Shown here piece by piece: positions 1-63,581 of a DNA stretch of 64,000 bases (the stretch's first letter is position 1; each line of letters begins with the position of its first letter). Below the pieces are notes generated by a model. The model was not told the origin of the DNA, ran no database searches, and was given only the letters and a program-made list of their open reading frames with translations. This stretch comes from Tubulanus polymorphus (Eukaryota; Animalia; Nemertea): NCBI RefSeq assembly GCF_964204645.1, contig NC_134026.1, forward strand, positions 16,340,150 to 16,404,149, in the 5' to 3' direction. The position numbers were made by a program, and so were the translations under genes.

Positions 1-431
1 CTATTAAATATGAAACCTTTAGATATATTTAAGCGTATTTAGTATATCTTTTAGATAGTTAGAGTTACCGCTAATATCTTTTAGATTAATAAAACGTCAT
101 ACGCATCAAGAAGCGATAGAGAAACTCAAGATACTCTTTCTGACTGAGGAATCAACAGCAATGGATATCGAACCAATAGAATCACCAAAAGATCGACGAA
201 GAAACTATATAAGAATTTCAAAAACATTGAGACTCCAATGATTAAGTTTAACATTTGTTAATGTAGTTAAATATTTACCAGCAATTGAAAAAATGTTTGT
301 AATTATAAATTGTATTTATAGAAATCAAATGATGTATTAGAAGAAATGACTGAACAACTTGTATAATGTATTGTGTAAATCTGATTTGTGAATTTTTATG
401 TTCAGTCGTTTCTATTATGTTTAACACATAC

Positions 432-719
432 GCATTAAGCAAAACCGGCCATAAATGGCCGCATGTGACACATGTAACGCATGTGACGAGAACATGAATG
501 CGTTTGAATTTTCTATATTCAGTTGTTTCTATTTTACAGAATTTATAGAATGAATATACAATTATGATTAACACATGTGCATTAAGCAAAACCGGCCATA
601 AATGGCCGCATGTGACGCATGTAACGCATGTGTTGTTTCTATTTTACAGAATTTATAGAATGAATATATAATTATGTTTAACGCATGCGCATTAAGCAAA
701 ACCGGCCATAAATGGCCGG
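432..719. repeat. Three imperfect tandem repeats, each with a CGGCCATAAATGGCCG hairpin
   Basis: GCATTAAGCAAAACCGGCCATAAATGGCCG at 432, 579 and 689. Confidence 0.9.
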
Positions 720-857
720 CCGCTTGTATTATTTAGATATCAAGGAACTGAAACGACTTATCAAAAGCAGCGAGGAATGAAAAAGGATGACGTTGGTCGA
801 AGAAATGGAAGAGGATTATAAAATATTAACCAATTTTAATAAAAATACGTATAATAA

Positions 858-1538
858 ATGGAACCAGAACAATCACAAGCTATAAATATAAACAATAAGA
901 AATGTTCTAAATGTAAAATAAATAAGCAACTCTCGGAATATTATAATTATAAAACTCAGAAAGATGGTAAGCAAAGTTATTGTAAAACTTGTAGTTAACT
1001 AAGTGACAAACAAAATTATAGAAATAATACTGAATCGCGCAATGATAAAAATAAGAAATGGAAAGAAAATCATTTAGAATATATTAAAGCGTATCAAAAT
1101 AAATATCATAAAGAAAGATATCAAACAGATTTTAATTTTAAAATGAAACAATGTCTAGGTAATAGATTATCACAATTATTCAGTAAAGAAGCGCATTCAG
1201 TTACACTAGCACATTTACTAGATTGTTTGGATGAATTCTTTAAATCATGGATAATATATCAATTCGATGATAAAATGAATATAAATAATTATGGTAATTA
1301 TTTTCATATTGATCATGTGTTACCAATATCTAAATTTGATATGAATGATGAATACAATCAGAAGTTAATATGGAATTGGAAGAATCTAAGACCTCTTGAA
1401 AAGAAAGAAAATAAAATAAAATTTAATAAAATAGATTTACAGTTATATTTGAATCAACTGGAAAAAGCACAAAAATTTATTGAATTATGGAATTCAACAC
1501 ATAATGAACAATACGTTGAGTCTTTAATGAGTGGTTAA
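858..1538 (+). pseudogene. HNH endonuclease with N-terminal CxxC..CxxC zinc ribbon (NCLDV-type); one in-frame stop
   Basis: ATG 858 is in frame with ORF 1143-1538. MEPEQ..KKCSKCKINK..SYCKTCS* with TAA at 996-998; C-terminal HIDHVLPISKFD..NWKNLRPLEKKEN HNH motif. Confidence 0.8.
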
Positions 1539-1764
1539 AGAATAATAGATTTTAAATAAAATATAATAAAAATTACATACCTTCAACTAGCTAATGAATT
1601 CTATTATATTTTTAATATTTTCTTTTCAAAAAGAGAATACTTTATATCACAAATAAAAAATACTAAAAAACAATAACTAATACTAGAGTTCTTTAACTTT
1701 AACTAGCTAGTATCATTTGAAGAATACTTATAATATTTTTTTTTGCTTTTTTTCTCTAATATAA

Positions 1765-2367
1765 ATGTCAAAGAAATCTAATAAGAATAGTATTGATATT
1801 GAAAAGACATTAGATGATTTGGGTATAAGTGATAATAAAGATACAGTTGTTTCTAATTCTATTCAAGTTAATAACAATATTGATTATGAATACTATTTAT
1901 ATTGTAAGCATCATCTAGAACTATTGATTGCGAGTGGAAAAACTAAAGAGTTTATTGGTAAAACAATAACTTTTCAAGAATTAGATAATATGAATAAAGA
2001 AAAAGTAATAAAATATTTTAAGATTTATGAAGAAGCTCGATTAACTAGAATAAATGATTCTATTTCAGATGGTATTGTCAAATGTTATTCAAAATTATGT
2101 AACCAGTTAATACCAATTGATGATGAAAATAAATTATATAATGATTTGAAAAATGACTATTTAGTTATGACTGAATTACAAAAATGGGTTGGATATGCTT
2201 CATTTCAATTAGGATCGGTTATGACATTGATTTCTACTGGAGTTATAACATTTTCGAATATCAAACCTATGGAATATAAATCAGGTAAGAATGAAACAGA
2301 TGTACTACAACAAAACGTCGAAACAGAAAATGAATCAGAACAAAAATTAACTAAAATAAATGAGTGA
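1765..2367 (+). CDS. Polinton hypothetical protein (200 aa) with a hydrophobic C-terminal segment
   Basis: ORF with TAAATG start; homolog in copy 2 at 53883. Confidence 0.8.
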   Translation: MSKKSNKNSIDIEKTLDDLGISDNKDTVVSNSIQVNNNIDYEYYLYCKHHLELLIASGKTKEFIGKTITFQELDNMNKEKVIKYFKIYEEARLTRINDSISDGIVKCYSKLCNQLIPIDDENKLYNDLKNDYLVMTELQKWVGYASFQLGSVMTLISTGVITFSNIKPMEYKSGKNETDVLQQNVETENESEQKLTKINE

Positions 2368-2734
2368 TGGAGTTAAGAAAAAGGCTAGATCCGAGAAACA
2401 AATTAAATGGGCAAGAGAATTAGGTAAAAGATCATCAGAATTAAAAAAAGCTAAGAAAAAGAAATTAACTGATATAAATGAATCACCCGATGATGCCGTA
2501 CGGCACCCACACGGTGGTATTGATTCAAATAATAATCCATCTAATTCTTCTAATGCTGGAAGTAATTATAAATTATATATTACAATTGGATTAGTAACAG
2601 TTATTATATTATCCGGTGTAATATATAAATCAAAATTCAAATCTGATGATAAATATGATTCCGATGACAATAAACCTATCATACCAGAAAATAAATCAAA
2701 TGAAACTAAATCTAAATTATTATTAATGGATTAA
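2360..2734 (+). CDS. Small basic protein with one transmembrane segment
   Basis: Lys-rich N-terminus; TM LYITIGLVTVIILSGVIY; homolog in copy 2 at 54437. Confidence 0.8.
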   Translation: MSDGVKKKARSEKQIKWARELGKRSSELKKAKKKKLTDINESPDDAVRHPHGGIDSNNNPSNSSNAGSNYKLYITIGLVTVIILSGVIYKSKFKSDDKYDSDDNKPIIPENKSNETKSKLLLMD

Positions 2735-2737
2735 AAT

Positions 2738-3853
2738 ATGATGAAAAAAGAACAATATTTAAGAGCGTTATATTACAACCCAGAAAGTGAAGTATCATTT
2801 TCTAACGTTTCAGAATTATGGAATAAAATTAAATCTGATAATAGCAATGGTGCCGTACGGCACCCACATGGTGGTATAAAATATAGTGAATTAAAATCAT
2901 GGTTACAAAATCAACCCACATATCAAATTCATAAAAAGATGGATAAAAAATATTTAACAAGAAAAGTAATGGTTTCATATATTGACCAACAATGGCAAGC
3001 TGATTTAATTGATATGAAAAACTTAGAAGAATATAACAAAGGATATTTTTGGATACTAAATGTTATAGATATATTCAGTAGATACGCATGGAGTATCCCG
3101 ATTAAAAATAAAACTGGTATAGAAGTTACAAATTCTTTCAAATTAATATTTAAAGAAGCTATCCCAGATAAAATACAATTTGATGAAGGTAAAGAATTTT
3201 ATAACAAACATTTTAAAAAACTATTAACTGATAACGATGTAGAATATTTTTCAACACATTCAGATAAAAAAGCATCTGTTATAGAAAGATTTAATAAAAC
3301 ATTGAAAACTAGAATGTGGAAATATTTCACCGCTAATGAAACATATAAATATATCGATGTGTTAGATGATTTAGTGAAAGGTTATAATAATTCTAAACAT
3401 AGTTCTATAAATATGAAACCTATACAAGCTAGAAAAGAAGAAAATTCAGAAATAGTTTGGAATAATTTATATGGTGCGTTTGTTACACATGATTTTGGAG
3501 AACCTAAATTTAAAATAGGACAACATGTTAGAATTTCTAAATATCGAAAAACATTTTATAAAGGTTATACTCCAAATTTTACAGAAGAAATATTTAAAAT
3601 TAAAAAGATAATATTAACTAAACCATTTGTTTATAAATTGTTTGATTTAAAAGATGAAGAAATATTAGGTTATTTTTATGAACAAGAATTATCATTAGTA
3701 CCAAATCCAGATGAAATAGAATACAAAATAGAAAAGGTATTGAAAACAAAAACTCTTAAAGGAAAAAAGTATTCTTTGGTGAAATATAAAGGATATGATG
3801 ATAAATTTAATGAATGGATTTTATCTAGTAAAATTAAAAGAATAAATGAATAA
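2738..3853 (+). CDS. int: Retroviral-type (rve) DDE integrase with C-terminal chromodomain
   Basis: WQADLIDM, IDIFSRYAW, QFDEGKEF and VIERFNKTLK motifs; chromodomain YKIEKVLK..LVKYKGYDDKFNEWI. Confidence 0.95.
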   Translation: MMKKEQYLRALYYNPESEVSFSNVSELWNKIKSDNSNGAVRHPHGGIKYSELKSWLQNQPTYQIHKKMDKKYLTRKVMVSYIDQQWQADLIDMKNLEEYNKGYFWILNVIDIFSRYAWSIPIKNKTGIEVTNSFKLIFKEAIPDKIQFDEGKEFYNKHFKKLLTDNDVEYFSTHSDKKASVIERFNKTLKTRMWKYFTANETYKYIDVLDDLVKGYNNSKHSSINMKPIQARKEENSEIVWNNLYGAFVTHDFGEPKFKIGQHVRISKYRKTFYKGYTPNFTEEIFKIKKIILTKPFVYKLFDLKDEEILGYFYEQELSLVPNPDEIEYKIEKVLKTKTLKGKKYSLVKYKGYDDKFNEWILSSKIKRINE

Positions 3854-4460
3854 AGATTTGTTTATATTTGAACCACATAATATGTTAATAACTGGAGTTA
3901 CAAATTGTGGTAAAACACACTTCATATTATATTTATTAGAAACTATTTATAAAAATCATTTCGATAATATAATATTATTCTGCCCAACTTATGAAATGAA
4001 TGAAACGTATAATAGAGATATAGTTTTTAAAGATAAAAAGTTTATTATATTAAATTCTAAAACAGTGAAAGATAATTTAGATAATTGTATAAAAATTGCA
4101 TTAGATATTTATAAAGGATCTAATACATTATTTATTATCGATGATTGCGCAAATTTACATGATTCTAAAATTAGAGAAAGTGAGTTATGTTATTTAGCTT
4201 TCTCTGGTAGACATTTTGGGATAACAACATGGGTTTTAAATCAGAAATATAATTCAATTGTGAAAGATTTTAGAGAAAATATAAGATTTCTAGTTTTATT
4301 CTACAATAAAGATAGAAAATCTATGCAACAATCATTGGAAGAAAATCAAATTATACCTACTGAATTACATGATGAATATATGAATAAATTAAAAAATAAT
4401 AAAGGTTCCAAATTACTTATGAGATTACAATTTCCATATGAATATAAATTTATAAAATAA
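3846..4460 (+). CDS. A32/FtsK-like genome packaging ATPase
   Basis: Walker A GVTNCGKT, Walker B FIIDD, and SGRH..LNQKY motifs. Confidence 0.93.
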   Translation: MNKDLFIFEPHNMLITGVTNCGKTHFILYLLETIYKNHFDNIILFCPTYEMNETYNRDIVFKDKKFIILNSKTVKDNLDNCIKIALDIYKGSNTLFIIDDCANLHDSKIRESELCYLAFSGRHFGITTWVLNQKYNSIVKDFRENIRFLVLFYNKDRKSMQQSLEENQIIPTELHDEYMNKLKNNKGSKLLMRLQFPYEYKFIK

Positions 4461-4477
4461 CTATTTGTATACCTATG

Positions 4478-4605
4478 TATTAGATACCCTAATACCTAAT
4501 ACCCCATTAGATACCCTAATACCTGATACCCTAATACCTGATACCCTATTAGATACCCTAATACCTGATACATACCCTAATACCCTATTAGATACCTTAA
4601 TACTT
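4478..4605. repeat. Short-period tandem repeat (ATACCCTAATACCTG-like) between convergent genes
   Basis: Repeated GATACCCTA(A/T)TA units; copy 2 has a different repeat (TACGTATTAAA) at 56565-56850. Confidence 0.85.
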
Positions 4606-4834
4606 AAAACCCCCTTTTTTATTTACTATCATTTTATACAATTTTCAACCTTTTTTACTTTTTGAGTGTTAGATAATCAATTTCTGAATCACTTTCACTA
4701 TAATCACTTTCAGACCCTAACAATTTATTCAAATGCTCTACCGTATCTTCATAAATAATTAGTTTATTATTTTTCACCTTTTTCACCTTTTTTACCGAAT
4801 CATCAATAGTTGTTTCATTTTTAAACTTATTCAT

Positions 4835-5689
4835 TCAATCAAATTTATTATTATTTTCTACTTTAAGTTTTATAGAATCTTTATTATCAATATGCTTATC
4901 TGTAACTATATCACCATGTGGGCGTATGGCGGCACCATTTTCATTATCATCTTTATTAGTGTTTGCTCCTAATATTTCATTTACAGTGTTTGATCCTAAT
5001 ATTTCATTAGCATCGGTTAAATCTAATTCATCTTTATTAGGTGTTGCTAATAAAAAATCTTCATATAATTCTTTACCATTTACTGTTTTATTTGAAACAA
5101 ATTTTGTAACATATCTAAATGGGTGTTCTATAAATTCTCTTAAACCAACACGTTCTATAACATTAGTAATATGTGAATTTGTATTCATATGTTTATTCCA
5201 ATTTGATGGAGCGTTTGAAAATTCACCATTACAATAACCACAATAATTTCTATTTTCACTAACATCTAATATTATTTTATTATTAGATGTAGTAGGTATT
5301 ACATTATTTGATGTAGAGGGTATTACAGATGTAGTAGGTATTACATTATTTGATGTAGAGGGTATTACAGATGTAGAAGGTATTACAGATGTAGTAGTAG
5401 GTATTACAGATGTAGAAGGTATTACAGATGTAGTAGTAGGTATTACAGATGTAGTAGTAGGTATTACAGATGTAGTAGTAGGTATTACATTATTATCAAT
5501 TACACTATTATTAACAACACCACTTTTATTATTATTACGTTCAATTAAATATTCTTTGTATTGATTTAATTCATTTAATAAAAATGTTCCAATATATTCA
5601 TTTATTCTTTTATAAGGTATTACATAATACAAATCATCATTGATTTCTTTATCAGCTTTGATTCTTTCATATACTTTACCTCCTTCCAT
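4835..5689 (-). CDS. Protein with Thr/Ser-rich repeats (VIPTTTS/VIPSTSNN) and a C2H2 zinc finger
   Basis: 284-aa ORF; YCGYCNGEF..WNKHMNTNSH; homolog in copy 2 starting at 57761. Confidence 0.8.
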   Translation of the reverse strand: MEGGKVYERIKADKEINDDLYYVIPYKRINEYIGTFLLNELNQYKEYLIERNNNKSGVVNNSVIDNNVIPTTTSVIPTTTSVIPTTTSVIPSTSVIPTTTSVIPSTSVIPSTSNNVIPTTSVIPSTSNNVIPTTSNNKIILDVSENRNYCGYCNGEFSNAPSNWNKHMNTNSHITNVIERVGLREFIEHPFRYVTKFVSNKTVNGKELYEDFLLATPNKDELDLTDANEILGSNTVNEILGANTNKDDNENGAAIRPHGDIVTDKHIDNKDSIKLKVENNNKFD

Positions 5690-5721
5690 TTATTATATAT
5701 ATTTTTATTAAAGTTAAAATT

Positions 5722-6969
5722 TTAATACATAACACTATCTAATTGTGAATTTACAATATTTAATTGTGCGTCAGATATAATATAAATGTGCATTTTAAAA
5801 TTTTTGATTCCTTTATTCTTTTTCATGAATAATTGTATTCCATCTTTAGTGTTCTGTAGTTTTTTTCCAGAACCATGTAATGAATTATCTTCTGTTGTTC
5901 TAAAATCTAACCATAATGCATATTTATTACCGGTATAATAATCAATTTGATTAATATTACAATTTTCAAATGATTTTATTTTTTCATTCATAAAATGTTT
6001 TCTAATTTCTGGCCATTGATCAATCATTCTCATTCCTTGGCAAAATATTTTATTCGCTATTCCTTCGATAGTTATTTCTACTTTTGTTATTTCAGGATTA
6101 TAATAATTATCAACATTTATTGCACCATTAGAATATGTTGCAATAGTAAAAAATATTATTATACCTTTAATAGATCTTCTTGGGAAGTTAATATTCTCAT
6201 TAATTATTTCATCATTTGCATTAATAGTTACAGTTTTAAATTTATCAATATAATCATATAATAATGAAAATCCTTGATTGTATTGAGTTTGAATTATACT
6301 TGAAATATTTTCATCAGTTACTGTATCATATTCTAAACATATATTCGATAATTTATAACTCATATCTTTAACAACGCTAGATAATACAATTTCATTTACA
6401 GGAGCAAATGTTATCTCAAATATAATATCTTCTTGAATTGCGTATTTATATAAAGGTGCATTATTATTTATCAATTCAAAGTCTAATGGAATTTTATATT
6501 TGCTTCCATAAATCTTTTTAATCAAATTATCTACGTCATTATTTACTACTGCGTTATTGGCTTCAGATCTTAATTTATTTTGGTTTTCTGATTGAATACC
6601 CTGAAATATCATATTATTTCTATTTTCTTTAGTTAACCATAAATCTTTATAATGTGAAAATAAATTATAATCATCTAATGAGAAAACTGTTTCTGGACCA
6701 ATCTTTATTGTTAACCTTTTAATCAAATATCTTCCAACATTATCAACAACATAATTATTATTATTGCCAGATACTTTTATATCGGCTGATAAATAAATAC
6801 TATTTGGAACATAAAAAGTATTTTGTGTTAATCTAGGAATTCTAACATATAAAGTTTCATCGGGATTAATATTTGAAGGGTTATGAGTAATTATATGATG
6901 TGATCTTTCTGCTTTAATAGCATTAGATATTCTATGATTCTTCGAAGGACTTATATAACTCCCACTCAT
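5722..6969 (-). CDS. Major capsid protein (double jelly-roll)
   Basis: 415 aa, beta-rich. Motifs ITHNPSNI, VGRYLIKRL.IKIG, YKLSNICLEYD, YALWLDFRTTEDNSLHGSG resemble invertebrate Polinton MCPs; recognised from memory and gene context. Confidence 0.8.
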   Translation of the reverse strand: MSGSYISPSKNHRISNAIKAERSHHIITHNPSNINPDETLYVRIPRLTQNTFYVPNSIYLSADIKVSGNNNNYVVDNVGRYLIKRLTIKIGPETVFSLDDYNLFSHYKDLWLTKENRNNMIFQGIQSENQNKLRSEANNAVVNNDVDNLIKKIYGSKYKIPLDFELINNNAPLYKYAIQEDIIFEITFAPVNEIVLSSVVKDMSYKLSNICLEYDTVTDENISSIIQTQYNQGFSLLYDYIDKFKTVTINANDEIINENINFPRRSIKGIIIFFTIATYSNGAINVDNYYNPEITKVEITIEGIANKIFCQGMRMIDQWPEIRKHFMNEKIKSFENCNINQIDYYTGNKYALWLDFRTTEDNSLHGSGKKLQNTKDGIQLFMKKNKGIKNFKMHIYIISDAQLNIVNSQLDSVMY

Positions 6970-7042
6970 TTATTTAACAAAAAAAAATTAATTATTTATT
7001 TTTTGATATCATGGTTTACTTGATATTTTTTGATATCATGGT

Positions 7043-8485
7043 TTACTTGATATTTTTTGATATCATATTTACTAAACCAAAAATAATAGCACTTACAACT
7101 GTAATTAAAAATAAAATAATATGTTCAGCAGCAAAGTTAATAATGTTTCCTGCAGATTTCAATATAAAACCAACAATTGAAGCAATAACTCCTGGTAAAG
7201 CTGCAGCAGATTTTTTAGATAGTTCCCATAAATATTTTGCTAATTTCTTTAAACCATCCTTAACTTTATCTTGTATAGAATTATTACCTGGAGGTTTATC
7301 TGGTTTATTGGGAGTGGGAGTAGGAGTAGATTTTAAAGCATTTGATATTGCTAAACCAATTGTTGTAAATAACATAGTTACAGCTGTTAGAATTGAAAGA
7401 ATTGTTATTCCTTCTAATTTAAATAATAACTTCATCCTGTCTTTTAATGATATTTCAGAATTTGGTTTAATCAACAAATCTTTAAAAATAACTTTTAATC
7501 TATTAATATTATAATCATATGATTTTAACAATAATTTAATTTCTTCTTTTTGTAATTCTATGTTATATTCTAAATCATCAATTTCTTTTTCTAAATATGC
7601 ATTTCTTTTTTTAAATTCAATTTCTTCAATAACTTTATTATCTCTATCTAATTTTAATTGTTCTATTTCTTTATTTTTATCAGTTAATTCTTTTTCTAAA
7701 GTTCTAATTTTAAAATCTCTTATACTTTTATTATGTGCAATTTTATCAGATGCAAGTCTTATACTAATAATTTCTCTAATTGCTTTATCAGAAAATATAT
7801 CTAAATCTTCTAATTCTTGATCTGTTGCATCAAATAATCCATTCGGTAAAAGTTTTTCAATTGGAACTTTATTTGATCTAAGTTTACTATTTTTGGAAGT
7901 TATATTCTGTTCAGAAGTTGTTTCTGTTTCTGATTTCTTTTTGATTATTTCAAATAATTCATTAATTCTTTGTTTAAATACATCTATATTATCATCTATT
8001 TCTTTTTGTGTAACATCAGTTATTTCATTACTATTACTTATTATTTTAATTCTATCTGGTTTTAATTTTTCTAAAGTTGATTCTAATAATATTTTATTTT
8101 TATTATTTTTATAAGTGATATCAATATAATAATCACCTTTCAAACGATAATAACATTTACCATTATCTAAAAATTTCAATTGATCTGCTAAAAGTCCAAC
8201 GTCTTCATCATTTATGTTAAAATTAGATTTTTCAATTAAATCTTCTAATTTAGGTATTTTGTTTAAATTATCTAAATCTTGTTTTACTAAATCTGGGTCT
8301 AAATTTTCAGGATTTAATTGTGATTCTGCATTTTTAATATAATCAGGCAAATTTAAATTATTATTATATTCTGGCTCATTACCATCATTAAAACTTGTTT
8401 CACTAAAATCAGGTTGTTGTTCATCAGTTATGTTAGGTTCATCAAAAGGATCCATTCCAATATCTTCTCCACCTTCTACATCCAT
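7043..8485 (-). CDS. Coiled-coil protein with C-terminal transmembrane segments
   Basis: 480 aa; acidic N-terminus, heptad-rich middle, hydrophobic ITILSILTAVTMLFTTIGLAI and IILFLITVVSAIIFGLV. Confidence 0.85.
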   Translation of the reverse strand: MDVEGGEDIGMDPFDEPNITDEQQPDFSETSFNDGNEPEYNNNLNLPDYIKNAESQLNPENLDPDLVKQDLDNLNKIPKLEDLIEKSNFNINDEDVGLLADQLKFLDNGKCYYRLKGDYYIDITYKNNKNKILLESTLEKLKPDRIKIISNSNEITDVTQKEIDDNIDVFKQRINELFEIIKKKSETETTSEQNITSKNSKLRSNKVPIEKLLPNGLFDATDQELEDLDIFSDKAIREIISIRLASDKIAHNKSIRDFKIRTLEKELTDKNKEIEQLKLDRDNKVIEEIEFKKRNAYLEKEIDDLEYNIELQKEEIKLLLKSYDYNINRLKVIFKDLLIKPNSEISLKDRMKLLFKLEGITILSILTAVTMLFTTIGLAISNALKSTPTPTPNKPDKPPGNNSIQDKVKDGLKKLAKYLWELSKKSAAALPGVIASIVGFILKSAGNIINFAAEHIILFLITVVSAIIFGLVNMISKNIK

Positions 8486-8501
8486 TTACATAATAAAAAA
8501 A

Positions 8502-9830
8502 TTAAAATTTAAAATATAATATTCCTCCGATTACAATTCCTATACAAGTTATAGCTAATTTAGTATTTTCATGGGATTTATTATCATCATTTAGTTTAAT
8601 TATATCATGTTGAATTTTATTGGTTTTAATATCACCGTGTGGGTGCCGTACGGCACCATTTTCTGATGTATTGTAATCTTTTATTTTAGAATCATTATTT
8701 AATTTAATATTCTTAGTTTTAGTTTCTGTTGATTGAATATGTTTTTTATTTTTTTCACCTTCCATTAATTTTGGAGCAGTAATAATCTTTTTATTTATAT
8801 TATTTAACCCAAATGAATTATTTATTGTTGCAGTTTTAATTAGATTATTATAACCAATTATATTTCCCATCTTTAATACTAAATCATTAGAAATAATTAA
8901 TAGATTAGGGCCTATACAATAATTAAGTCTTACATGAGATTTATCTAAATAATTTTGATATCTTATAATGTTTTCTGGAATCGATCTATTTTTATCATTA
9001 TGAATTGAATCTTCAAATAAAACTTTAAACTGTTTCTGCGCATCGAATGAAGTGTTATCATTTCCAATTATTGGGGATCTTGTTTCAACTTGCGCACCTA
9101 AAATACACATCAAATAAATTCTAATAGATTGATTTATTCTTTGTATACCTGATTTTGTAAAACCTTCACCATTTTCTAAAATGAAATTAACCCAACCATT
9201 ATCATTATCAATTTTATAATTATGATAAGCTGAAATTCTATGCATATAATCAATTCTTTTTATTTCAAACTCTTCACCAACACCTTGCAATTTACCATGC
9301 GCTCTGAAATCGGAATTAATATTTATATTAAATTCATTACATATTTTATAAAACTTGGATATATTAATATTATTATCCAATTCTTTAAAATATTTAGACC
9401 CGGGTAAAGGACATTCTAATTCATTTAATATTATTCTGATTTGAAAATATGTGTGAAATCTAAATATTGTGTGAATTAATTTTAAATCAGAATACTTCAA
9501 ATTTTTATCTAAGTTATTTAAATGATCATTCCAACTTATTCCACATCCTGTTGTTGCACAATAAACAGCAAAATTTAATTGATTCTGCCAATATTTCATA
9601 TTAGATTTTACTTTATATATATGATATTCATCTCGAGTAAAAGTAACTTCATATGTATTAAATATATTTTCCATTTTAGAAATAAAAAACTGTGATTCAG
9701 TAACATAAATTTCTAAATTAGTTAATGAATTTAAAACTACATTTTTATATGTAATATTTTTCTTAAAATCTATTGCCGGAATATTATATTTAATTGATTT
9801 ATTATATTGGAAAGCTTTTGGAAACCCCAT
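8502..9830 (-). CDS. Conserved Polinton protein with C-terminal TM anchor
   Basis: 442 aa; WQNQLNFAVYCATTGCGIS motif; C-terminal LAITCIGIVIGGILYFKF; homolog in copy 2. Confidence 0.85.
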   Translation of the reverse strand: MGFPKAFQYNKSIKYNIPAIDFKKNITYKNVVLNSLTNLEIYVTESQFFISKMENIFNTYEVTFTRDEYHIYKVKSNMKYWQNQLNFAVYCATTGCGISWNDHLNNLDKNLKYSDLKLIHTIFRFHTYFQIRIILNELECPLPGSKYFKELDNNINISKFYKICNEFNININSDFRAHGKLQGVGEEFEIKRIDYMHRISAYHNYKIDNDNGWVNFILENGEGFTKSGIQRINQSIRIYLMCILGAQVETRSPIIGNDNTSFDAQKQFKVLFEDSIHNDKNRSIPENIIRYQNYLDKSHVRLNYCIGPNLLIISNDLVLKMGNIIGYNNLIKTATINNSFGLNNINKKIITAPKLMEGEKNKKHIQSTETKTKNIKLNNDSKIKDYNTSENGAVRHPHGDIKTNKIQHDIIKLNDDNKSHENTKLAITCIGIVIGGILYFKF

Positions 9831-9846
9831 TTATATAACTAAAAAA

Positions 9847-10281
9847 TTAATAATTTATTAATTCTTTTAATAATTTATCTTGTTCTTCAACTGTTATATG
9901 ACCATTTAAACTTATTATATAATCTAGTGTGTTCTTTAATTTATTAATTTCTTTTATATTAGTTTTAATTTTTTCTTTATTACTTTTTATATTTAATTTT
10001 GAACTTATACCGGTTAAAACACTTGAACTTAATCCTAATACACCAATTGATATAGCTAAAGGTGTTAATGGGCTGAATATTGCTAGAAATGTTATTACAG
10101 AACTAATTGTAACCAAACCACTTATAATCAAATAATATATAATTTTACTTTTTAAATATTTTTTCTTTTTTATCTTTAAGTCACTTTCATATTCTAATAT
10201 TTGTTTTTCTAAATATGTTTTTAATTTAGTTTTATTTATATCATGAGGAATAATATCAATACTATCAACTTTATCTTCCAT
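9847..10281 (-). CDS. Two-TM membrane protein
   Basis: 144 aa with a central hydrophobic hairpin flanked by Lys-rich coils. Confidence 0.8.
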   Translation of the reverse strand: MEDKVDSIDIIPHDINKTKLKTYLEKQILEYESDLKIKKKKYLKSKIIYYLIISGLVTISSVITFLAIFSPLTPLAISIGVLGLSSSVLTGISSKLNIKSNKEKIKTNIKEINKLKNTLDYIISLNGHITVEEQDKLLKELINY

Positions 10282-10298
10282 TTATTTAGCAAAAAAAA

Positions 10299-10724
10299 TT
10301 ACTCATTAGTAAATTTATAAGCAACAAATATAACAATAACTGTTCCACCTAAAATCCAAATTATTTCATATTTCTGTTGTTCTTTACTTGGGGTATAATA
10401 ATCTGATAATTTAGGTTTGTATAGATGTAATTTTTCTTTATTGGTTACTGTGTTATATAAACTCATTGCATCATCAACTGATTGAAAATCTCTATGTGAA
10501 ATCTTCTGATCATATAATTCTTTATTGATGTAATCCATATAGTTTTGTCTCTTTTCTCTATATTCTTCTGCAGCTTTATTGTATTTCTCTAACGCTAAAT
10601 TATGTCTTCTTTGTTCTCCTAATGAACTATTTTTATCAATATGTTTAAATAAATAACCACCACCAGTAAATGCTAAAGCGTTAACAATTGCCGATCCTAT
10701 AATAGTTATAATTGCAGAAGCCAT
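10299..10724 (-). CDS. Small membrane-associated Polinton protein
   Basis: N-terminal IIGSAIVNALAFTGGGYLF and a C-terminal TM; intact homolog at 62541-62963. Confidence 0.85.
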   Translation of the reverse strand: MASAIITIIGSAIVNALAFTGGGYLFKHIDKNSSLGEQRRHNLALEKYNKAAEEYREKRQNYMDYINKELYDQKISHRDFQSVDDAMSLYNTVTNKEKLHLYKPKLSDYYTPSKEQQKYEIIWILGGTVIVIFVAYKFTNE

Positions 10725-10749
10725 TTATTTAGTAAAAAAAATTATGCAT

Positions 10750-10971
10750 TTATATGGGAGGAATATATTTTTGTTTTTCCAAATAATCAATAGTTAAATT
10801 AGATAAAGTAACTGCTAATGTTAACTTTAAAATATCATTGATATCAAATCTATCAACATTAACACTTCCCATTTTGAATACTTTTTTTAATACCATTGAA
10901 TAACCAACCGTTCCAACTGATAGTAATGCGCCATTATATAATCCAGTTATTATCCACTTATTATCACTCAT
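10750..10971 (-). CDS. Small hydrophobic protein (73 aa)
   Basis: Near-identical intact homolog at 62988-63209. Confidence 0.8.
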   Translation of the reverse strand: MSDNKWIITGLYNGALLSVGTVGYSMVLKKVFKMGSVNVDRFDINDILKLTLAVTLSNLTIDYLEKQKYIPPI

Positions 10972-10974
10972 TTA

Positions 10975-11331
10975 TTAATCAAAAAAATTACTATCTTCAA
11001 AATATTTAGTTAACTTATTTATGATTAATTCAACATTTATTTTATTACTAGTTTTATGATTATCATATATTTTGGTTAATATGTTTTTAATATCATATAT
11101 GATAAAATCTTCATCTAATTCATAAAATCTTAAAGATTCTCTAATTAAATTAGTAATCTTTTCTACATTTAAAGTTTCTTTATCTATTGTTGTTTCATAC
11201 TCAAATGTTGTTTCATTAGAAAATGCAATATTTTTTATATGTGTTATTACATCATTAATGTTAAATTTCATTTCTTTCTCACGTTTAAAATCAAATCCAA
11301 AACATATACTCGGTCCAACAGTTATATTCAT
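10975..11331 (-). CDS. Hypothetical protein (118 aa)
   Basis: Intact homolog at 63210-63566. Confidence 0.8.
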   Translation of the reverse strand: MNITVGPSICFGFDFKREKEMKFNINDVITHIKNIAFSNETTFEYETTIDKETLNVEKITNLIRESLRFYELDEDFIIYDIKNILTKIYDNHKTSNKINVELIINKLTKYFEDSNFFD

Positions 11332-11347
11332 TTATATAGGTGAAAAA

Positions 11348-12106
11348 TTACTCTTTACATCTTATAACTAATTCATAAATTACAGGAAAGTTATTCAAAT
11401 CAATTAAGTATCCATTATGATTTCTTATTTCTAATTTAAAATTATTAAATTGAGGAATACAAGGTTTGAAATCACATTCAGCTAAATTATAATTTATTTG
11501 CGTTCCAAATTGTTTAACATTCTTCAATGGTAAAATGTTTAGTAAACCAGAATTACATGTTGTATCTTTAGTTGCTTCAAATGTTTTTGTAGGATCGATT
11601 AAATTGCAATAAATATAAAAATGTGTAAAAGGTATTAAGTTTGATCTACCTTCTGCGTATGCTGTAACAATATCTGGGTTAATTCCTAACAGTTTAGCTA
11701 AAGGTTTTCTTACTGTAAATTTAAATTGTTCGTTATTATCTAACCTAATCTTTATTTTATTAGAACTATCACTTTTTAAAATTCTAATACTAAATCTGGA
11801 ATCACTTCCTAATTTAGCTCGAGCTTTTCTATTAATTTCTTGTGCTAATGTATCTAAATTATATAACCCCGGTTTTAAAAATATAGAGAACCATTCATTT
11901 TTACCTTTATAAAAAATTAAAAAAGCTCTATGTTCAATAGTTTTATCCGATATATTGTAAAAAGAATTACATAAACTTATATTTACTAATTTTAAATCTA
12001 CACAATTCTTGAATTCTCTATCTAATTGTACTAGTAAATTATGTGATTTATAATTTGTAAGTTTTCTAGAATCTATAAATATTCTGTATTCTTTTAATTC
12101 CGCCAT
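11348..12106 (-). CDS. Minor capsid (penton, single jelly-roll) protein
   Basis: IFIDSR..SFYNI, FYIYCNLI, LLNILP and FKLEIRNHNGYLIDLN patterns typical of Polinton/virophage pentons. Confidence 0.8.
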   Translation of the reverse strand: MAELKEYRIFIDSRKLTNYKSHNLLVQLDREFKNCVDLKLVNISLCNSFYNISDKTIEHRAFLIFYKGKNEWFSIFLKPGLYNLDTLAQEINRKARAKLGSDSRFSIRILKSDSSNKIKIRLDNNEQFKFTVRKPLAKLLGINPDIVTAYAEGRSNLIPFTHFYIYCNLIDPTKTFEATKDTTCNSGLLNILPLKNVKQFGTQINYNLAECDFKPCIPQFNNFKLEIRNHNGYLIDLNNFPVIYELVIRCKE

Positions 12107-12123
12107 TTATTTTACATATTTTC

Positions 12124-12465
12124 TCATTCGAAATCTATTTCATGGTGCCCTTTTTCATTCTTACCTTTATATACGAAATAGAAATCTCCAGAACATAATT
12201 CTTCTAGATCTTCACTTGATAATCTATGAAATCTATCTGGTAAATATGTTCTGAATTTATATGTATTTCCTTTTAATCCTTCATATTCTAAGTGTATAAC
12301 TAATTTATCTCCATATTTATTAGTAATTGTTTCAATGTTAGTAATTAAATATTTCTTGTGAATTGTTAACTCAGTTAGTTTTTTAAATTTATAATCTACA
12401 GATTTGACGCTTGAAGTATCTTTAATTCTATCTAAGAATTCACTGTGTACTTGTTTACTCTCCAT
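12124..12465 (-). CDS. Putative OB-fold ssDNA-binding protein
   Basis: KKLTEL..KKYLI..NKYGDKLVI..YLPDRF pattern; adjacent to PolB; functional call is inference. Confidence 0.55.
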   Translation of the reverse strand: MESKQVHSEFLDRIKDTSSVKSVDYKFKKLTELTIHKKYLITNIETITNKYGDKLVIHLEYEGLKGNTYKFRTYLPDRFHRLSSEDLEELCSGDFYFVYKGKNEKGHHEIDFE

Positions 12466-12493
12466 TTATTATACAAATTTTTATTGAAATTGA

Positions 12494-15400
12494 TTAACAC
12501 GTTAGAATCCTTTTCATAATCTCATTTTCTTTTGTTTCTTCTCTTTTGAATTTTATATATTCATCTAAATTGCAACCATAGGCGACTGTGTGGATTCCAT
12601 CATCTAAAATATATCTTTTATCATCAAATGGATTCAAACTTATCTTCTCTATCTCTTCAATATACATTTCATGATCTTCAGATCTTAAACATTTCATCTT
12701 ATGTTTTCTAACTTCTTCATTAAATATACAATTGATGTAATCTTTGAAATGAATATTCTTTTCAACAACGCTTTTGGTTATTCCTTTTAACTTTTTAGCT
12801 TCATGTTCTTTAGTTTTATATGAATACATTTTAGATCTAATACCAATGAACTCTATCATTTCTTCACCACCTAATTCATCCTTAAACTTCCCAGGAACTT
12901 TTTTATTATCATTGGTAAACAATTCATGATTTTTTGGATAGTTACTGAAATCAAAATGATGTTTTAATGTTTTTAAATCATCTGTTATGTTATCAGTTTT
13001 TATCTTTAATATGTAAGAATCTGTATCAAAGTATAGAATTTCTATATTCTTTTCTCCAAAATGGGGTTGTAATATGTTATAGTAAAATTTATACATTAAT
13101 AACTTTGATAATTCTAAAACAGTCGAACCAATAAATATAGGTTTATTGAATTTAATAGACGTTCTCCTCATTTTAACTGCAGCTAAATTTTCATCAAATA
13201 TTCTGTTACCTATAAACTTAGGATATGATTGTAAATGCCTTATCCTTTTACCATTACTAACTAACTCAATATCATTTCTATTTCTAATATTTTCACAAGT
13301 CTTACCATAGAACGCATTGTTCATTAACTTGAAGAAGTCTTTTTCAAAATCAGTTTTAGATTTAGTTCTCTGTGTAGTATTAAAATCTATATATTTTTCT
13401 AACCATTTAGATTGACTAAATGAAATATATCTATGTACTTTTTTTAGAATCATTCCTTGATTCAAATAAAACTTCAACATTCTATAATGTACTACATAAT
13501 TATATTTATCTTCTTGAGTTACCATTAACTTTTCAGTATGAATATGATTATCGGGTTTAATTCTTTTTTGATAATTTGATAATTCTTCATGTTTAACAGT
13601 TTTATGTTCGGGACAATATGCTAGATTTCTAGATTTGAATTTAATATTTTCAGGGTATTCTAAATCTACAACAAAGAAGTAACCAGTATCTGAATCATCT
13701 GCAATATCTAGAATTCTTTTCTTCCAATCAAATTTATCAATTTGTAAAACTTCAGTTATTTCAAACATCCCATAAGGTTGTGGTTCCATCATTGCCCAAC
13801 CATAAAGATTATTTGCATCTATATATGATAATTTATATCCAGGATTATCATTTACATTGAAATATCTATCACCCAATACACCGGAAACACCTCCTCTTAT
13901 AGATTTTTCAAATAATAGTAATTGATCTATATTTGTTAACAAATCCATTTTTATATCTGTAAATTTTAATCCACAATCCCATGTTAATCCTGGTGATGAA
14001 TAACAATGACATGGATCAATGTTAAAATATTTTAGGTTTACATCTCTAAACCTTTCGAATATATCGGTTAATAATAATACATCTGATTTTAAATATAAAT
14101 CTACTAATTGACCATGATTTTCTATTTTGAAATGATTCCAAATATTCAATGTTCTATTATAGACTTCATCTTTAACATATTCATTTTTTAATTCATCATA
14201 AAATTGTTCTTTTAATAATTCAGTTATTTTAAAATCATTATGATTTTTATAGAAAGAATATGGAATCGCTCCTTTATATCTCATTAATTGGAAATCATCA
14301 TTATTTGGGTAATATTCTTTTAATATTTTTAATTCATCATCAACTAATGATTTTGATAAGTTATCTAATGAACTACTTAAAAATCTATATGAATCTATAA
14401 ATCTTAGACAACCAAATTGGAATGATATATAATTCTCAGATGTTTTAGCTAACATTCTAAATTTATAAGTTGGTATTTTATCTTTTGATCTATTTGAATT
14501 TAATATTTCTATTTCATTATTGATTTCTTCTATTTTATAACATAGCTGTTTGATAAATAAATGTGCATCATATCCTGATAGATTATGAAATATAACTGGT
14601 ACAAAGTTAATTTTCTTAGCTTGTAAGTTACAATTCTCATGTGCAGCGCCTCTAAACTTTCCATTCAAATGATCATGGTCTCTTACTTTTTTATCTTTAT
14701 AATTAAATATCTTTTCACAATAATAACATTTATCTGCAAACTCAAATTCTTCTTTATCTTCTTCTGTCATTATAATTTCTATATTTTTATTTAACTTTTC
14801 ATTAAATCTTATTTCATATTCAATTAATAAGTCACAAAAATAATTGATAACATTTTCATTTCTATAATTATAATATTCACTTTTAATTAGTTCTGGATAA
14901 TCAGATTTAATATATAACCCGAAAGCAGCAGCTGATTGATGAATCTTTTTAATAGTATTTGTTATTGGTGGTTCATCTGAATAATCACTTTCATTAGAAT
15001 TTAATTTCTTTCTTTTATAATATATATCTTTTCTATCTTTATCTGTTAATTCTTTATTTAATGATTCAAAATCTCCATATATTACAAATGGTACTTTATT
15101 TTTGTAATCATATTTTTTGAATTCTAATATTTTATCTTTTTCATTTGGTAAAACTAATTTACAATAATCATGATTATCACATAGTTGTTTATGATTTAAT
15201 AATGTACTTTCATTACTAAATTTATGTAAACATTTTCTACATAGATATATTTTATTATGGTGATCACTTTCTGTTCTAAAAAATAAATCTATTTGTTTAA
15301 TCCACATATAATGATTCTCATAATATAGTATATCTATAACATCATTTGAATCATAATCTTTTGATAGGTATAAAGGTTCTAATGTATAATGTTTAATATT

Positions 15401-16525
15401 ATTTCCTTTTGTATTTGGTAATTTGATTAAATCAAATACATTTATCTTTAAATTATTATCTCTTTCTATTTTTGGGATATTTTTAATTCTAACAGGATAC
15501 TTATCTATCTTATAATTACTTTCAAATGGTTTATAATGAGTTAATCTAAAACTATGTGTAATATCTTCTGTTGGATGTAAACAACTTATTATAGCCCATA
15601 GAAAACATTTATCATCTTCATTTTGTATATTTATTACAGCATTAGTTTTAAATGGTAGTTTAATATAACTCGATGCTTCAATATCTAGTTCTTTATAATA
15701 TGATAAATTATTTTCATCAATTGGTTTTGATTTAGTTAACTTATTATATTTTGTGTTATAAACATGTAAAGTTATAAATATTATCTCATCAAATATTAAA
15801 CCAGATCCTTCAAAATATTTCTCTTCTATTTTAGATTTTACTTCATTATAACATTTATCTAATTTATCATCTATATGTTGTTTAGATATAATATGTTGTG
15901 AATGAGAATTTATATTATATATTGGTTTATCTTCAGATTTTATAAACTTTACTTTAACTGATATACTAATTTTAGGATATTCAACATCTGTAATTATTTT
16001 TATTATTTCTTTCATATTTTCTAAATGTTTTTTATTTTCTTCTATTGTTTTTCCTTTATGAAATTTAAACTCGATAGCTGCTGGACCAATATCACTTTTA
16101 AATGCTTCGGTTATTTCTATATCTTTTTTATTATCTAATGAATTAATATATTTTCTTACATCTTCCATGTATGGTCTTTTATTGTTTAATTTATTTTTTT
16201 TTCTTTTAATTGTCTTCTGTTTCTTATCGTTATCATTATCAAAATAATCTTCACCTAAAATATCATTATTCTTATTTCTAATATGACTTATAGATTTTAA
16301 ATGTTCTTTATAATATCTTTTATCACTGAATGATTGATTACATGTATCACATTTGTATGTTTCTTTTTCATTCTTTAATTCTTCTAATTTAGTTTCTAAT
16401 ATATCATCCTTTTATTCTAGTTTCAATTTATTCTCTAACTGTGTTCTAGTTTTATTGTGTCTTGCTTTTTGGGATTTATCTATATCGATATTACATGTTG
16501 GGCAGTAGTACTTATTTGCTTCCAT
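12494..16525 (-). CDS. polB: Protein-primed family B DNA polymerase with N-terminal zinc fingers, OTU-like region and inserted EndoVII-like domain; one in-frame stop near the 5' end
   Basis: Exo motifs YGDFES, FHNLSGYD, YLKSDV; Pol motifs YIDANNLYG, KLMNNAFYGK, YFDTDS. ATG 16525 is in frame with the 1224-aa ORF, with TAA at 16412-16414. Confidence 0.95.
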
Positions 16526-16590
16526 TTTAATACTATATTTTTTATTAAAATTGATTTTAGAAGTTCAATGATTTAAATGAATATTTTAAG

Positions 16591-16994
16591 AGTAATAGGG
16601 GTAATAGGCTTTCATATCAAAGGTTTAATGATCGAGTTCATTAATAACATATATTAAAAGTAATTAAAAAACTATAATATATTTTCATAACCGCGTGCAT
16701 TTCAGTTGAATAATAGAATAATTATTATCATTTGAATATATTTGATTATTTGAATTTGTGTATTGTAATTAAATCAATTGGTCGCGGAGCGGAGCGGTAT
16801 CGAAGTGGAGCGACCAATTGATTTAATACAATATGCTTTTTATATTATTGATATCTTAATAAATACTTAGTTTTGATATAAAATGCACGCGGTTATGAAA
16901 ATATATTATAGTTTTTTAATTACTTTTAATATTTTGTTTTTTAATGGGCTCGACCGTTCGACCTTTGGTATGAAAGCCTATTACCCCTATTACT
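16591..16994. repeat. Nested inverted repeat forming the right terminus of the Polinton
   Basis: Outer arms 16591-16702 / 16881-16994 (AGTAATAGGGGTAATAGG...CCTATTACCCCTATTACT); inner stem 16761-16785 / 16810-16833. Confidence 0.9.
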
Positions 16995-52805: not shown

Positions 52806-53882
52806 AACTACTATCTCGAAGTTTCATTTTCGGACTTTTTATTATCATTGTAGGATTCTCTCCTGTGCTATTTCAGTTGAAAAGGATTAATCAATTACAT
52901 CACAAAGGAAGGAACATATGTTGATCAGATAGTGTTTAGCTAGTGAATAACTGGCAGTTATAAGCGCGCAGCACATAAGCATAGGAACGCATAGGATATT
53001 CTCTCTATAAACACAATTTTAGGAGTTAACAGTTATAAATGTAAGTACTGTTTTTGTTGTTATTAAGGCGTTGGGAAACGTTAAACATGTAAAACTTACC
53101 CTGGTAAGATGCGCCACAAATGACTATGTTTAAGTGCTATAATTAATTTTTTACAACTAAAACTTCAAGTTAGTTTTATTCTACGCTAGATATTTATCTT
53201 TTAGATTACAAAATGAAGACCATTGAATCAAGAAAGTGAAGATAGATGGATGTGGAATCAGAAATAATGGATATTTCAACTCATGAGACTGTAGCCGTTT
53301 AGCCATACTGTATAGGCTTCCAATGCATTACGTTTGCCGGAATTTCAATTGCGTCATTCAGCTGTTGTTAATGTCACACACAGTGACAGATGTTGTATTA
53401 TACTTTATTGATTCCTGCATTCCACGCATACCTTACCGCTCGGCTGCCGAGCGGCTTGGAATGTGGAAATCGATAATGATTGTAGAATGAAATATATGTG
53501 TTTATGAAATAGTATTTCCACCAGTCGTTTCTTTGAATTTATTTTCAGTTTTAGGATTTATTATCAAGAATCCGAAATGACTTATCTGGACAGTTATAAT
53601 TACTGCTCCTAATAGATAGACAATAGTAGTGAGATATTAAATCCTAATTTAAATAAAATATAATAAAAAAACAATAACTTCAACTGCTAGTGAATTCTAT
53701 TATATTTTTAATATTTTCTTTTCAAAAGAGAATACTTTATATTTTGAATAGATTCAAATAGAAATTCTTTAAATTCAAATAGCTAGTATCAGTAGTCAAT
53801 ACTAGAATTCTTTAACTTTAACTTTAACTATCTAGTATCAGAATACTTATAATATTTTTCTTATTAAATTTCTCTAATATAA

Positions 53883-54846
53883 ATGTCAAAGAAATCGAGT
53901 AAGAATAGTATTGATATTGAAAAAACATTAGATGATTTGGGCATAAGTGATAATAAAGATACAGTTGTTTCTAATTCTATTCAAGTTAATAACAATATTG
54001 ATTATGAATACTATTTATATTGTAAGCATCATCTTCAATTATTAATTGCTGGCGGGAAATCTAAGGATTTCTTGGGAAAATTTTAACTTATCAAGAACTA
54101 GATGCTATGAAACCCGATAAAGTAATAAAATATTTTAAGATTTATGAAGAGGCAAGATTGGCCCAAATAAATGATTCTATTTCAGATGGTATTGTCAAAT
54201 GTTATTCTAAGTTATGTAACCAGTTAGTACCAATTGATGATGAAAATAAATTATATAGTGATTTGAAAAATGACTATTTAGTTATGACTGAATTACAAAA
54301 ATGGGTTGGTTATGCTTCATTTCAATTAGGATCGGTTATGACATTAATTTCTACTGGCGTCATAAGAACGAAACAGATGTACTACAACCAAACGGTGAAA
54401 CAGAAAATGAATCAGAACAAAGATTAACTAAAATAAATGAGTGATGGAGTTAAGAAAAAGGCTAGATCAGAGCAGGGAAGTGTGATGAGATCATCACACT
54501 TCCCTGATCAGAGAGACAAATTAAATGGGCAAGAGAATTAGGTAAAAGATCTTCAGAATTAAAAAAAGCTAAGAAAAAGAAATTAACTGATATTAATGAA
54601 TCACAGACTTTATCTGATATTGATTCAAATAATAATCCATCTGATTCTTCTAATGCTGGAAGTAATTATAAATTATATATTACAATTGGATTAGTAACAG
54701 TTATTATATTATCCGGTGTAATATATAAATCAAAATTCAAATCTGATGATAAAGATGATTCCAATGATAATAAACCTATCATACCAGAAAATAAGTCAAA
54801 TCATAAAACCATTGAAACTAAATCTAAATTATTATTAATGGATTAA
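53883..54846 (+). pseudogene. Disrupted homologs of ORFs 1765-2367 and 2360-2734
   Basis: Frameshift near 54085, deletion near 54360, 41-bp insertion at 54473. Confidence 0.85.
54473..54506. mobile_element. 34-bp micro-MITE (16-bp TIRs, 7-bp TSD ATCAGAG)
   Basis: CAGGGAAGTGTGATGA-GA-TCATCACACTTCCCTG; absent at the copy-1 site near 2390. Confidence 0.85.
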
Positions 54847-54852
54847 AATAAG

Positions 54853-56545: not shown

Positions 56546-57069
56546 CTATTTATATATCTATGTATCTAATACGTATTAAATACGTATTAAATACGTATTA
56601 AATACATTAATACTTAAAACCCCCTTTTTTTAAATAAATGTTATTTATACAATTTTCAACCAATTTATTTTTTTATTTTTTCAACTAATATATGAATAAG
56701 TTTGAAAATAATAAAGGTTATTTATTATTACTGAGGTTTCAATATAAATTTAAAAAAGAAATATAATTTAAGGTATTTTCAAATAATATGTATTAGATAC
56801 GTATTAGATATGTATTAGATATGTATTAAATACGTATTAGATACCTTAATACTTAGAACCCCCTTTTTTATTTACTATTATTTTATACAATTTTCAACCT
56901 TTATTACTTTTTGAGTGTTAGATAATTACTTTCTGAATCACTTTCATCATCACTCTCCAATTCATCATCAGACCCTAACAATTTATTCAAATGCTCTACC
57001 GAATCTTCATAAATAATTGGTTTATTGATATACTTATTAGTCATCTCAACTATATCTTTATTTTCTTAT

Positions 57070-63566: not shown

Positions 63567-63581
63567 TTATATAATGAAAAT

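Follow-up and report, generated by a model that had tools for sequence, protein, structure and literature searches.

We find that nearly every gene of a Polinton (Maverick) element in the nemertean Tubulanus polymorphus starts at a conserved signal with the layout of a poxvirus intermediate or late promoter. The window, i.e. the whole stretch of 64,000 nucleotides analysed here (NC_134026.1, positions 16,340,150 to 16,404,149), holds one copy of this element at its left end and a decayed second copy at its right end. The same start motif recurs in diverged relatives and, judging from their sequence, the RNA polymerase that reads the signals is on balance likely to come from a co-infecting pox-like helper virus and not from the host, a promoter mimicry comparable to that of virophages.

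A start-site motif shared by the genes of the element

TAAATG forms the start of 14 of the 16 open reading frames (ORFs) examined in copy 1. The exceptions are the integrase (AAAATATG) and the DNA polymerase PolB (TTAAAATG), as reported in a first-pass annotation of the window, all of whose coordinates for these signals were confirmed. Elsewhere in the element the hexamer occupies 39 of 618 ATGs (Fisher p=1.5e-14) or, if one counts the first ATG after a stop in the other frames, 39 of 434 (p=2e-13), and 20,000 shuffles of the upstream 25 nt never placed it at more than 7 of the 16 starts. The null comparison proposed with that annotation, against AT-matched shuffles, thus leaves the motif far above both shuffles and other ATGs.

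Two kinds of tract stand ahead of this initiator. As claimed in the first pass, AATAAAAAT-NNN-TATAATAAATG (A-class) precedes the genes that start at 858, 5689 and 12465 and the copy-2 gene at 57761, and PolB has a close variant, AATAA-N12-TAAAATG; at the A-class offset, AATAAAAAW is found in 4 of the 16 starts but in only 2 of the 618 other ATGs. The T-class sites, marked by a T-run, are likewise all present (TTTTT within -19..-9 at 8 of 16 starts as against 19 of 618 other ATGs), including that of ORF 10971, whose T-run lies inside the last codons of ORF 11331. Read over positions -16..-13, eight genes have TTTT, six AAAA, ORF 2360 AAAT and the integrase ATTA, i.e. seven A-leaning genes, eight T genes and one of neither kind; AAAA or TTTT stands there at only 27 of 618 other ATGs, and position -12 is T at 15 of the 16 starts. 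The sites in the annotation's class lists therefore stand, but the lists had overlooked three A-leaning members, namely the packaging ATPase (ORF 3846), ORF 12106 and ORF 2360, in which the A-run is shifted by one base.

The position of the tract follows the downstream ATG: the upstream stops end anywhere from -4 to -227, with two overlapping the start; the tract lies inside coding sequence at three starts; and the distance from T-run to ATG stays constant with the upstream stop 74 or 227 nt away, and also with the run ahead of that stop. In no case is the TAA of TAAATG the stop codon of the upstream gene. At four of the seven TAATTTTT sites the TAA is such a stop, and at those four only the T-run is therefore counted as motif. 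The words of baculoviruses (DTAAG), mimivirus (AAAATTGA) and Cafeteria roenbergensis virus (CroV; TCTA, at 5 of 16 starts against 222 of 618 other ATGs), the poxvirus early word and the upstream conserved sequence (UCS) of yeast elements show no enrichment at the starts, and for a TATA-box-like word the enrichment is marginal (p=0.045), with 6 of 16 starts as compared to 107 of 618 other ATGs.

The A-class sites resemble one another beyond the core (84% over 45-55 nt: 808-863, 5684-5724 and 12461-12515), which suggests that a promoter was copied between unrelated genes.

Conservation in related loci

The motif definitions were set after inspection of the window, and related loci therefore provide an independent test. 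A metagenome scan yielded 22 capsid loci, in which starts were set by N-terminal homology and not by the motif; 19 gave at least one start, and L002, L009, L011 and L014 were dropped as near-duplicates. TAAATG is present at 40 of 44 homology-defined starts in 11 de-duplicated loci, whose capsids are 49-76% identical, and TAAA lies within ~11 nt of 43 of the 44. It is kept at 8 of 9 starts in three loci of 36-44% GC (L006-L008) and is rare in AT-rich viral loci that are unrelated (2 of the 28 ORF starts of three such loci), so that composition does not explain it; none of 11 starts in four more distant, sister-group loci has it. In a capsid tree (quick IQ-TREE run, 48 rows, midpoint root) the 14 TAAATG rows, L014 (with TGAATG) and 11 rows without DNA context form one group (SH-aLRT 98), and the four loci without TAAATG form a separate one (88). 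That the motifs are kept across capsids of 50% identity and a range of 20-44% GC points to long-term selection on them.

Capsid and ATPase queries found no relative among viral contigs, genome-contig scans gave none except one distant ATPase locus (L023), and tblastn against a phage collection had no match. The closest named animal relative of the capsid among the matches listed is from the bivalve Mactra antiquata (38%). Capsid relatives within the TAAATG group are also filed under several Bartonella assemblies on short contigs (the P0046 cluster), which are probably host contamination. Relatives with a deoxynucleoside kinase gene (PF01712, E ~1e-31) were seen at L003:10340-10981 and L007:2895-3377, the former with a T-class TAAATG start.

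Match to poxvirus intermediate and late promoters

We compared these layouts with published descriptions of vaccinia promoters; here and below, statements attributed to a paper by its PMC or bioRxiv identifier refer to passages of that paper. In the vaccinia intermediate promoter a 12-bp spacer separates TAAA, at -1..+3, from a core that is AT-rich but has no consensus (PMC12917281), and TAAAAT is the initiator of vaccinia G8R (PMC12722222). In the late promoter TAAAT(G) is preceded by a T-rich core at a distance of 5-7 bp, and the tenth base upstream is T (PMC11980589; PMC5294985).

The intermediate layout, with its AT-rich core, 12-bp spacer and TAAA, is found as AATAA-N12-TAAA at four starts of the window (HNH, zinc-finger gene, ORF 12465 and PolB), against an AATAA core at 4 of 253 other TAAAT sites with N11-13; in the related loci AATAA-N11-13-TAAA occurs at 5 of 44 starts. 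In PolB the initiator lies one base further upstream (TAAAATG) and the core is displaced equally, leaving the 12-nt spacer unchanged. As for the late layout, T stands ten bases ahead of TAAAT in all eight T-class starts and is missing in six of the seven A-leaning ones. The gap between T-run and TAAAT is 6 in five T-class starts and 7 in one, as in the late promoter, and 8 in the other two; a T-run layout of this type is seen at 7 of 253 other TAAAT sites. The resemblance to vaccinia promoters that had been proposed is thus borne out, spacing included.

Two layouts and the order of expression

The first-pass annotation had assigned the two layouts to DNA-handling and structural genes expressed at different times. 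Two promoter layouts do exist, but the clean split is weakened by changes of class in relatives. Class is kept in 20 of 23 near-relative orthologues (Fisher p=7e-4, a value inflated by shared descent). Across the relatives, the zinc-finger gene and the ATPase tend to remain A and the small membrane-protein genes tend to remain T. In this element, a 19-residue hydropathy of at least 1.75 is reached in 4 of 8 T-class genes against 1 of 7 A-leaning ones. The split is weakened by the integrase, which is T-class in L001 and L004, by HNH homologues that are T-class in L008 and L017, and by the major capsid gene, which is A-class in L007, L011, L012 and L014. The family as a whole does not obey the rule 'DNA-handling first, structural second'; a two-step order of expression may, as far as these sequences indicate, hold in this sub-lineage. 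In vaccinia, expression is early for the polymerase and single-stranded DNA-binding protein (SSB) genes and intermediate for A32 and D13, and many of the late genes encode membrane proteins. The element is comparable in its A-leaning ATPase, the counterpart of A32, and in its T-class membrane proteins. The annotation's OB-fold label for ORF 12465 came down to a weak lead (Atlas 0.85), towards a phi29-type SSB.

Transcription by a helper virus and the alternatives

If a pox-like helper reads these signals, element DNA would reach the cytoplasmic virus factory of a helper-infected cell, and intermediate factors of the helper would fire the AATAA-N12-TAAA genes, such as those of the polymerase and the zinc-finger protein. 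The packaging ATPase and putative minor capsid genes would belong with these less clearly. Late factors would then fire the T-run genes for the major capsid and small membrane proteins, and the polymerase would slip on TAAAT, giving transcripts a poly(A) leader instead of a 5' untranslated region (UTR). The element would thus be expressed only in infected cells. Family searches of all ORFs seen in copy 1 confirmed that no RNA polymerase gene is visible, and TBP families had no match there either; within the window DNA the element, like a virophage, has no recognisable RNA polymerase of its own. There are precedents for this scheme: virophage types carry differing helper-matched motifs (PMC8547959), and viruses related to Polintons have been found in occlusion bodies of entomopoxviruses (PMC11296320).

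Several points weigh against this reading. No helper virus turned up in flank ORFs, related loci or pattern scans of viral contigs: pox families had no match in the 12 and 13 flank ORFs scanned, a pox polymerase subunit was not found among 29 ORFs of related loci, and the T-class pattern had no match in the viral contigs. The exact A-class pattern was present in three viral contigs, once each and never at an ORF start, and was treated as chance. The motifs are brief stretches rich in A and T, and sequence specificity is low in the intermediate core of vaccinia itself (PMC12917281); nor are the motifs unique to poxviruses, since yeast linear virus-like elements use TAAAN initiators (PMC6211774) and ranavirus polymerase promoters a TAAAT motif (PMC5294985). 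The sites within each class are not independent events, as seven of the T-class genes lie side by side and the A-class sites are 84% identical over 45-55 nt. With respect to timing, class is kept in only 9 of 16 distant orthologues, 2 being unclassified (p=1), the SSB-like gene changes to the T class in L003, and D13, the vaccinia capsid homologue, is intermediate and not late. Back-to-back genes of L009, L010 and L013 even share one spacer of 28-30 nt, which has TAAATG at either end and a core that reads T on one strand and A on the opposite one (L009:370-399, L010:2017-2046, L013:788-819). Finally, a nuclear-integrated copy would somehow have to meet a cytoplasmic polymerase.

Such shared spacers fit an alternative in which the signals belong to some other cytoplasmic polymerase system with a TAAA initiator (Pokkesviricetes-like, iridovirus-like or linear plasmid-like) and the A and T classes are one core in two orientations, without timing. 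The symmetric 28-nt promoters of L009 and L010, the class flips in distant relatives, and the TAAAN and TAAAT of yeast elements and ranaviruses would all agree with it. We nevertheless regard it as unlikely: two separate vaccinia descriptions are matched by the 12-nt spacer, which the PolB shift preserves, and by the T ten bases upstream; class is retained in 20 of 23 near orthologues; and the yeast UCS word, ATNTGA, shows no enrichment, being found at 2 of 16 starts as against 138 of 618 other ATGs. Fairly improbable, too, is transcription in the nucleus by host RNA polymerase II with an element-encoded or host factor, the AATAAA of the A-class perhaps doubling as an upstream poly(A) signal. 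The element does integrate (rve plus chromodomain) and has many diverged copies, and several unassigned ORFs could conceal a regulator, but no ORF matched TBP or the like. TATA-box-type transcription starts ~30 nt downstream of the box, so that with the A/T tract only 12-20 nt ahead of the ATG the start would fall inside the gene, and the T at -3 is the opposite of the purine that the usual Kozak rule places there. PolB, moreover, has an A-class site without an upstream gene, and the lack of depletion of AATAAA on the coding strands (81 against 79.4 +/- 5.3 expected) is weak evidence against transcription by the host polymerase.

The signals could also be relics, inherited from a helper-dependent ancestor by a family that now spreads as a transposon without using them. 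The damage in both window copies and the fact that no helper was seen would suit this, yet the persistence of the motifs across half-identical capsids and 20-44% GC, along with the many family contig records that are 95-99% identical, makes it highly unlikely. Very improbable indeed is the idea that TAAATG is a translation signal (stop beside start) or a by-product of AT richness or ORF calling, with the T-runs as upstream terminators. The element is ~77% AT and the TAA is an upstream stop at four of the seven TAATTTTT sites; however, all three nulls speak against chance, relatives of higher GC content retain the motif, the TAA of TAAATG is not once an upstream stop, and the T-run holds a fixed distance to the ATG. 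Chance, stop-start coupling and T-runs as terminators only were accordingly rejected.

If a pox-like helper is indeed the reader, integrated Polintons would be the animal counterpart of mavirus, and start motifs could predict unseen large DNA viruses for each host group. No virions of animal Polintons have been observed, according to a 2026 preprint (bioRxiv 10.64898/2026.06.19.733378); the transcription of these elements and their formation of particles is a long-standing question that the pox-type promoter grammar makes directly testable.

A sister capsid group with TATA instead of TAAATG

Of the 13 ORF starts in L018 of the sister group (47% GC), 10 have TATA at most 22 nt away, as do only 15 of the 318 other ATGs (p=1.4e-11); in the three exceptions it is 5, 16 and 22 nt ahead of a second in-frame Met. 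L015 has TATA at 3 of 3 starts against 15 of 101 (p=0.003); significance is not reached in L016 (1 of 2), L020 (1 of 4) or L021 (1 of 3), and L022 and L023 give no information. African swine fever virus (ASFV) late genes have a TATA initiator and short UTRs (PMC7458399), which the sister-group TATA, shortly ahead of the ATG, resembles. In addition, a 165-aa ORF (L018:5082-5579) has a weak match to Pox_VLTF3, to its C-terminal part only (E=3.6e-5, 24 bits with a cut-off of 25). By analogy, these one or two loci would link the sister group to asfarviruses, and the switch of start motif between sister groups with common genes recalls the virophage types of Cafeteria (PMC8547959). It is conceivable, if rather doubtful, that animal Polintons are endogenous virophages sorted by helper, with one capsid group of pox type and an intermediate-to-late cascade, and its sister group of asfarvirus type, with TATA and a VLTF3-like gene. 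Were this true, the promoters would flag undiscovered pox-like and asfar-like viruses of invertebrates, and possibly a mavirus-style inherited antiviral defence in animals. For the reading of the signals by a helper virus, the switch of motif between capsid groups is a point in favour, and the significance of TATA in only two of five sister-type loci (L018 and L015) a point against.

Organization of the element and its surroundings

On its sequence and modelled structure the element is a Polinton. It has a retroviral-type integrase (rve, E=7.3e-9; chromodomain, E=9.1e-5), an A32-like packaging ATPase (PF04665, E=3.7e-12), a family B polymerase (PF03175, E=9.6e-15) and a predicted double jelly-roll major capsid protein (model pLDDT 87.9), the model of which matches the capsids of Paramecium bursaria chlorella virus 1 (PBCV-1) and iridovirus with E ~3e-16 and that of mavirus with 4e-11 (Foldseek). 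Copy 1 spans ~17 kb of the window at ~22-25% GC, against ~37% in the flank (Table 1). Both window copies are damaged, copy 1 by a single in-frame stop each in HNH and PolB, and public contigs hold many diverged copies of the family (19,885 contig records from one run). ORF 12106 is a putative minor capsid protein and the penton candidate; its sole family match is a weak one to DUF5901 (E=0.013). PDB profile searches with the capsid, ORF 12106 and ORF 1765 gave no match, no known fold matched ORF 9830, the largest of the conserved unassigned ORFs (predicted fold pLDDT 80.9), and the HNH match in Pfam is weak and seen only in the L001 homologue (E=0.0055). The cysteine maturation protease family had no match among the 16 ORFs, though the left end may be missing; positions 1-857 are without a long ORF, none of the unassigned ORFs exceeds 480 aa, and an Rfam search of 1-17300 had no match.

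Table 1. Features of the window
Feature	Position	Strand	Remarks
Polinton copy 1	1..16994		AT-rich; left end probably outside window
A-class site (AATAA-N12-TAAA) of HNH-like gene	838..860	+	
HNH-like endonuclease gene	858..1538	+	broken by one in-frame stop near start
T-class site of ORF 1765	1745..1767	+	
ORF 1765	1765..2367	+	200 aa; conserved in relatives, no function assigned
A-leaning site within end of ORF 1765, and ORF 2360	2340..2734	+	124 aa; single hydrophobic segment
rve integrase with chromodomain	2738..3853	+	without TAAATG; L001 homologue has TAAATG and T-run
A-leaning site within integrase coding end, and A32-like packaging ATPase (ORF 3846)	3826..4460	+	
Zinc-finger-like ORF 5689 and A-class site (5687-5709)	4835..5709	-	A-class also in L001, L002, L005 and copy 2
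Major capsid gene (5722-6969), double jelly-roll, and T-class site	5722..6989	-	
ORF 8485 and T-class site	7043..8505	-	480 aa; C-terminus hydrophobic
ORF 9830 and T-class site	8502..9850	-	442 aa; conserved
ORF 10281 and T-class site	9847..10301	-	144 aa; weak SLATT-like two-helix membrane domain
ORF 10724 and T-class site	10299..10744	-	141 aa; hydrophobic
ORF 10971 and T-class site in last codons of ORF 11331	10750..10991	-	73 aa
ORF 11331 and T-class site	10975..11351	-	118 aa; A-class in L003
ORF 12106 and A-leaning site	11348..12126	-	252 aa; AATAA-N13-TAAA in L003
ORF 12465 and A-class site	12124..12485	-	113 aa; T-class in L003
Protein-primed-type family B DNA polymerase gene (12494-16525) and AATAA-N12-TAAAATG	12494..16546	-	one in-frame stop near start
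Right-end imperfect palindrome	16591..16994		404 nt, AGTA...TACT; adjoins host 154-nt satellite unit
Decayed Polinton copy 2	53648..64000		TAAATG retained at all 11 orthologous starts open to comparison

Family contigs cover the right-end palindrome deeply, so that it belongs to the family. It folds as DNA at -120.7 kcal/mol (z=-23.7) and may be either a hairpin end or a terminal repeat that folds on itself; no left-end counterpart lies within the window. PolB has an endonuclease VII-like segment (PF02945) directly ahead of the polymerase domain. A short palindromic insert with a GCCGTACGGCAC core stands in frame in four genes (2490-2532, 2846-2881, 4916-4940 and 8617-8660), where it encodes AVRHPHG-like peptides, and is missing from the copy-2 integrase. 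At 420-725 a unit of 110-150 nt is present three times, with a near-palindrome, CCGGCCATAAATGGCC, that itself includes TAAATG. The flank holds a KDZ transposase piece (21270-21650), a tandem C2H2 zinc-finger ORF (28448-29545), a reverse transcriptase piece (42640-43233), a PAN-domain exon (46357-46803) and satellites of 154, 189 and 44/45 nt. These four gene pieces, like the bivalve relative of the capsid, are in keeping with an invertebrate host.

Comparison with known systems

The element shares with Mavericks/Polintons (Polintoviricetes; 'adintoviruses') the pPolB-type polymerase, rve integrase with chromodomain, A32 ATPase, double jelly-roll capsid and length of ~17 kb, family features given in bioRxiv 10.64898/2026.06.19.733378, which also describes the gene content of group 2 Polintons as variable. 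It differs in having no detected cysteine protease among its 16 ORFs and in the pox-type layout at nearly every gene. From vaccinia promoters, with which it has in common a TAAA(T) initiator overlapping the ATG, an AT-rich core with a 12-nt spacer, and an upstream T with a T-run, it differs in that the complete core is found at only four of seven A-leaning genes.

A close proposal is that of Barth et al. 2024 (PMC11296320), for whom animal-associated Polinton relatives are putative poxvirus hyperparasites; two of their entomopoxvirus-associated Polinton-like viruses (PLVs) are described as divergent members of the mavpol2 capsid clade. Compared by description, they share with the present element a proposed tie of an animal-associated Polinton relative to poxviruses, but they come from occlusion bodies and encode a protease, whereas here the tie is suggested by promoter grammar alone. 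That paper presents no promoter analysis, as 'promoter' and 'motif' are absent from its main text and 'promoter' from its supplement. Mavirus and the endogenous mavirus-like elements (EMALEs) of Cafeteria (PMC8547959) are integrated small DNA viruses with the promoter word of their helper, and the differing EMALE motifs have been taken to imply differing helpers; their host is a protist, their helper a known virus of the mimivirus family, and their TCTA motif is not enriched here. The yeast plasmids pGKL1/2 (PMC6211774) are protein-primed linear DNA relatives of Polintons in which a TAAAN initiator gives 5' poly(A) leaders. They differ in having their own polymerase, no capsid and a UCS; neither that polymerase nor UCS enrichment is found in the element.

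No report of pox-type promoters in animal Polintons was found in the open literature. The word 'promoter' is absent from passages of a coral polintovirus paper and of a 2026 PLV preprint, and passages of a preprint on endogenous dsDNA viruses hold nothing on a pox-like helper in such a host. Helper-matched promoters in protist virophages and Polinton relatives travelling with entomopoxviruses are already known; what is new is a real and conserved pox-type promoter grammar, as read from the sequences, in an animal Polinton.

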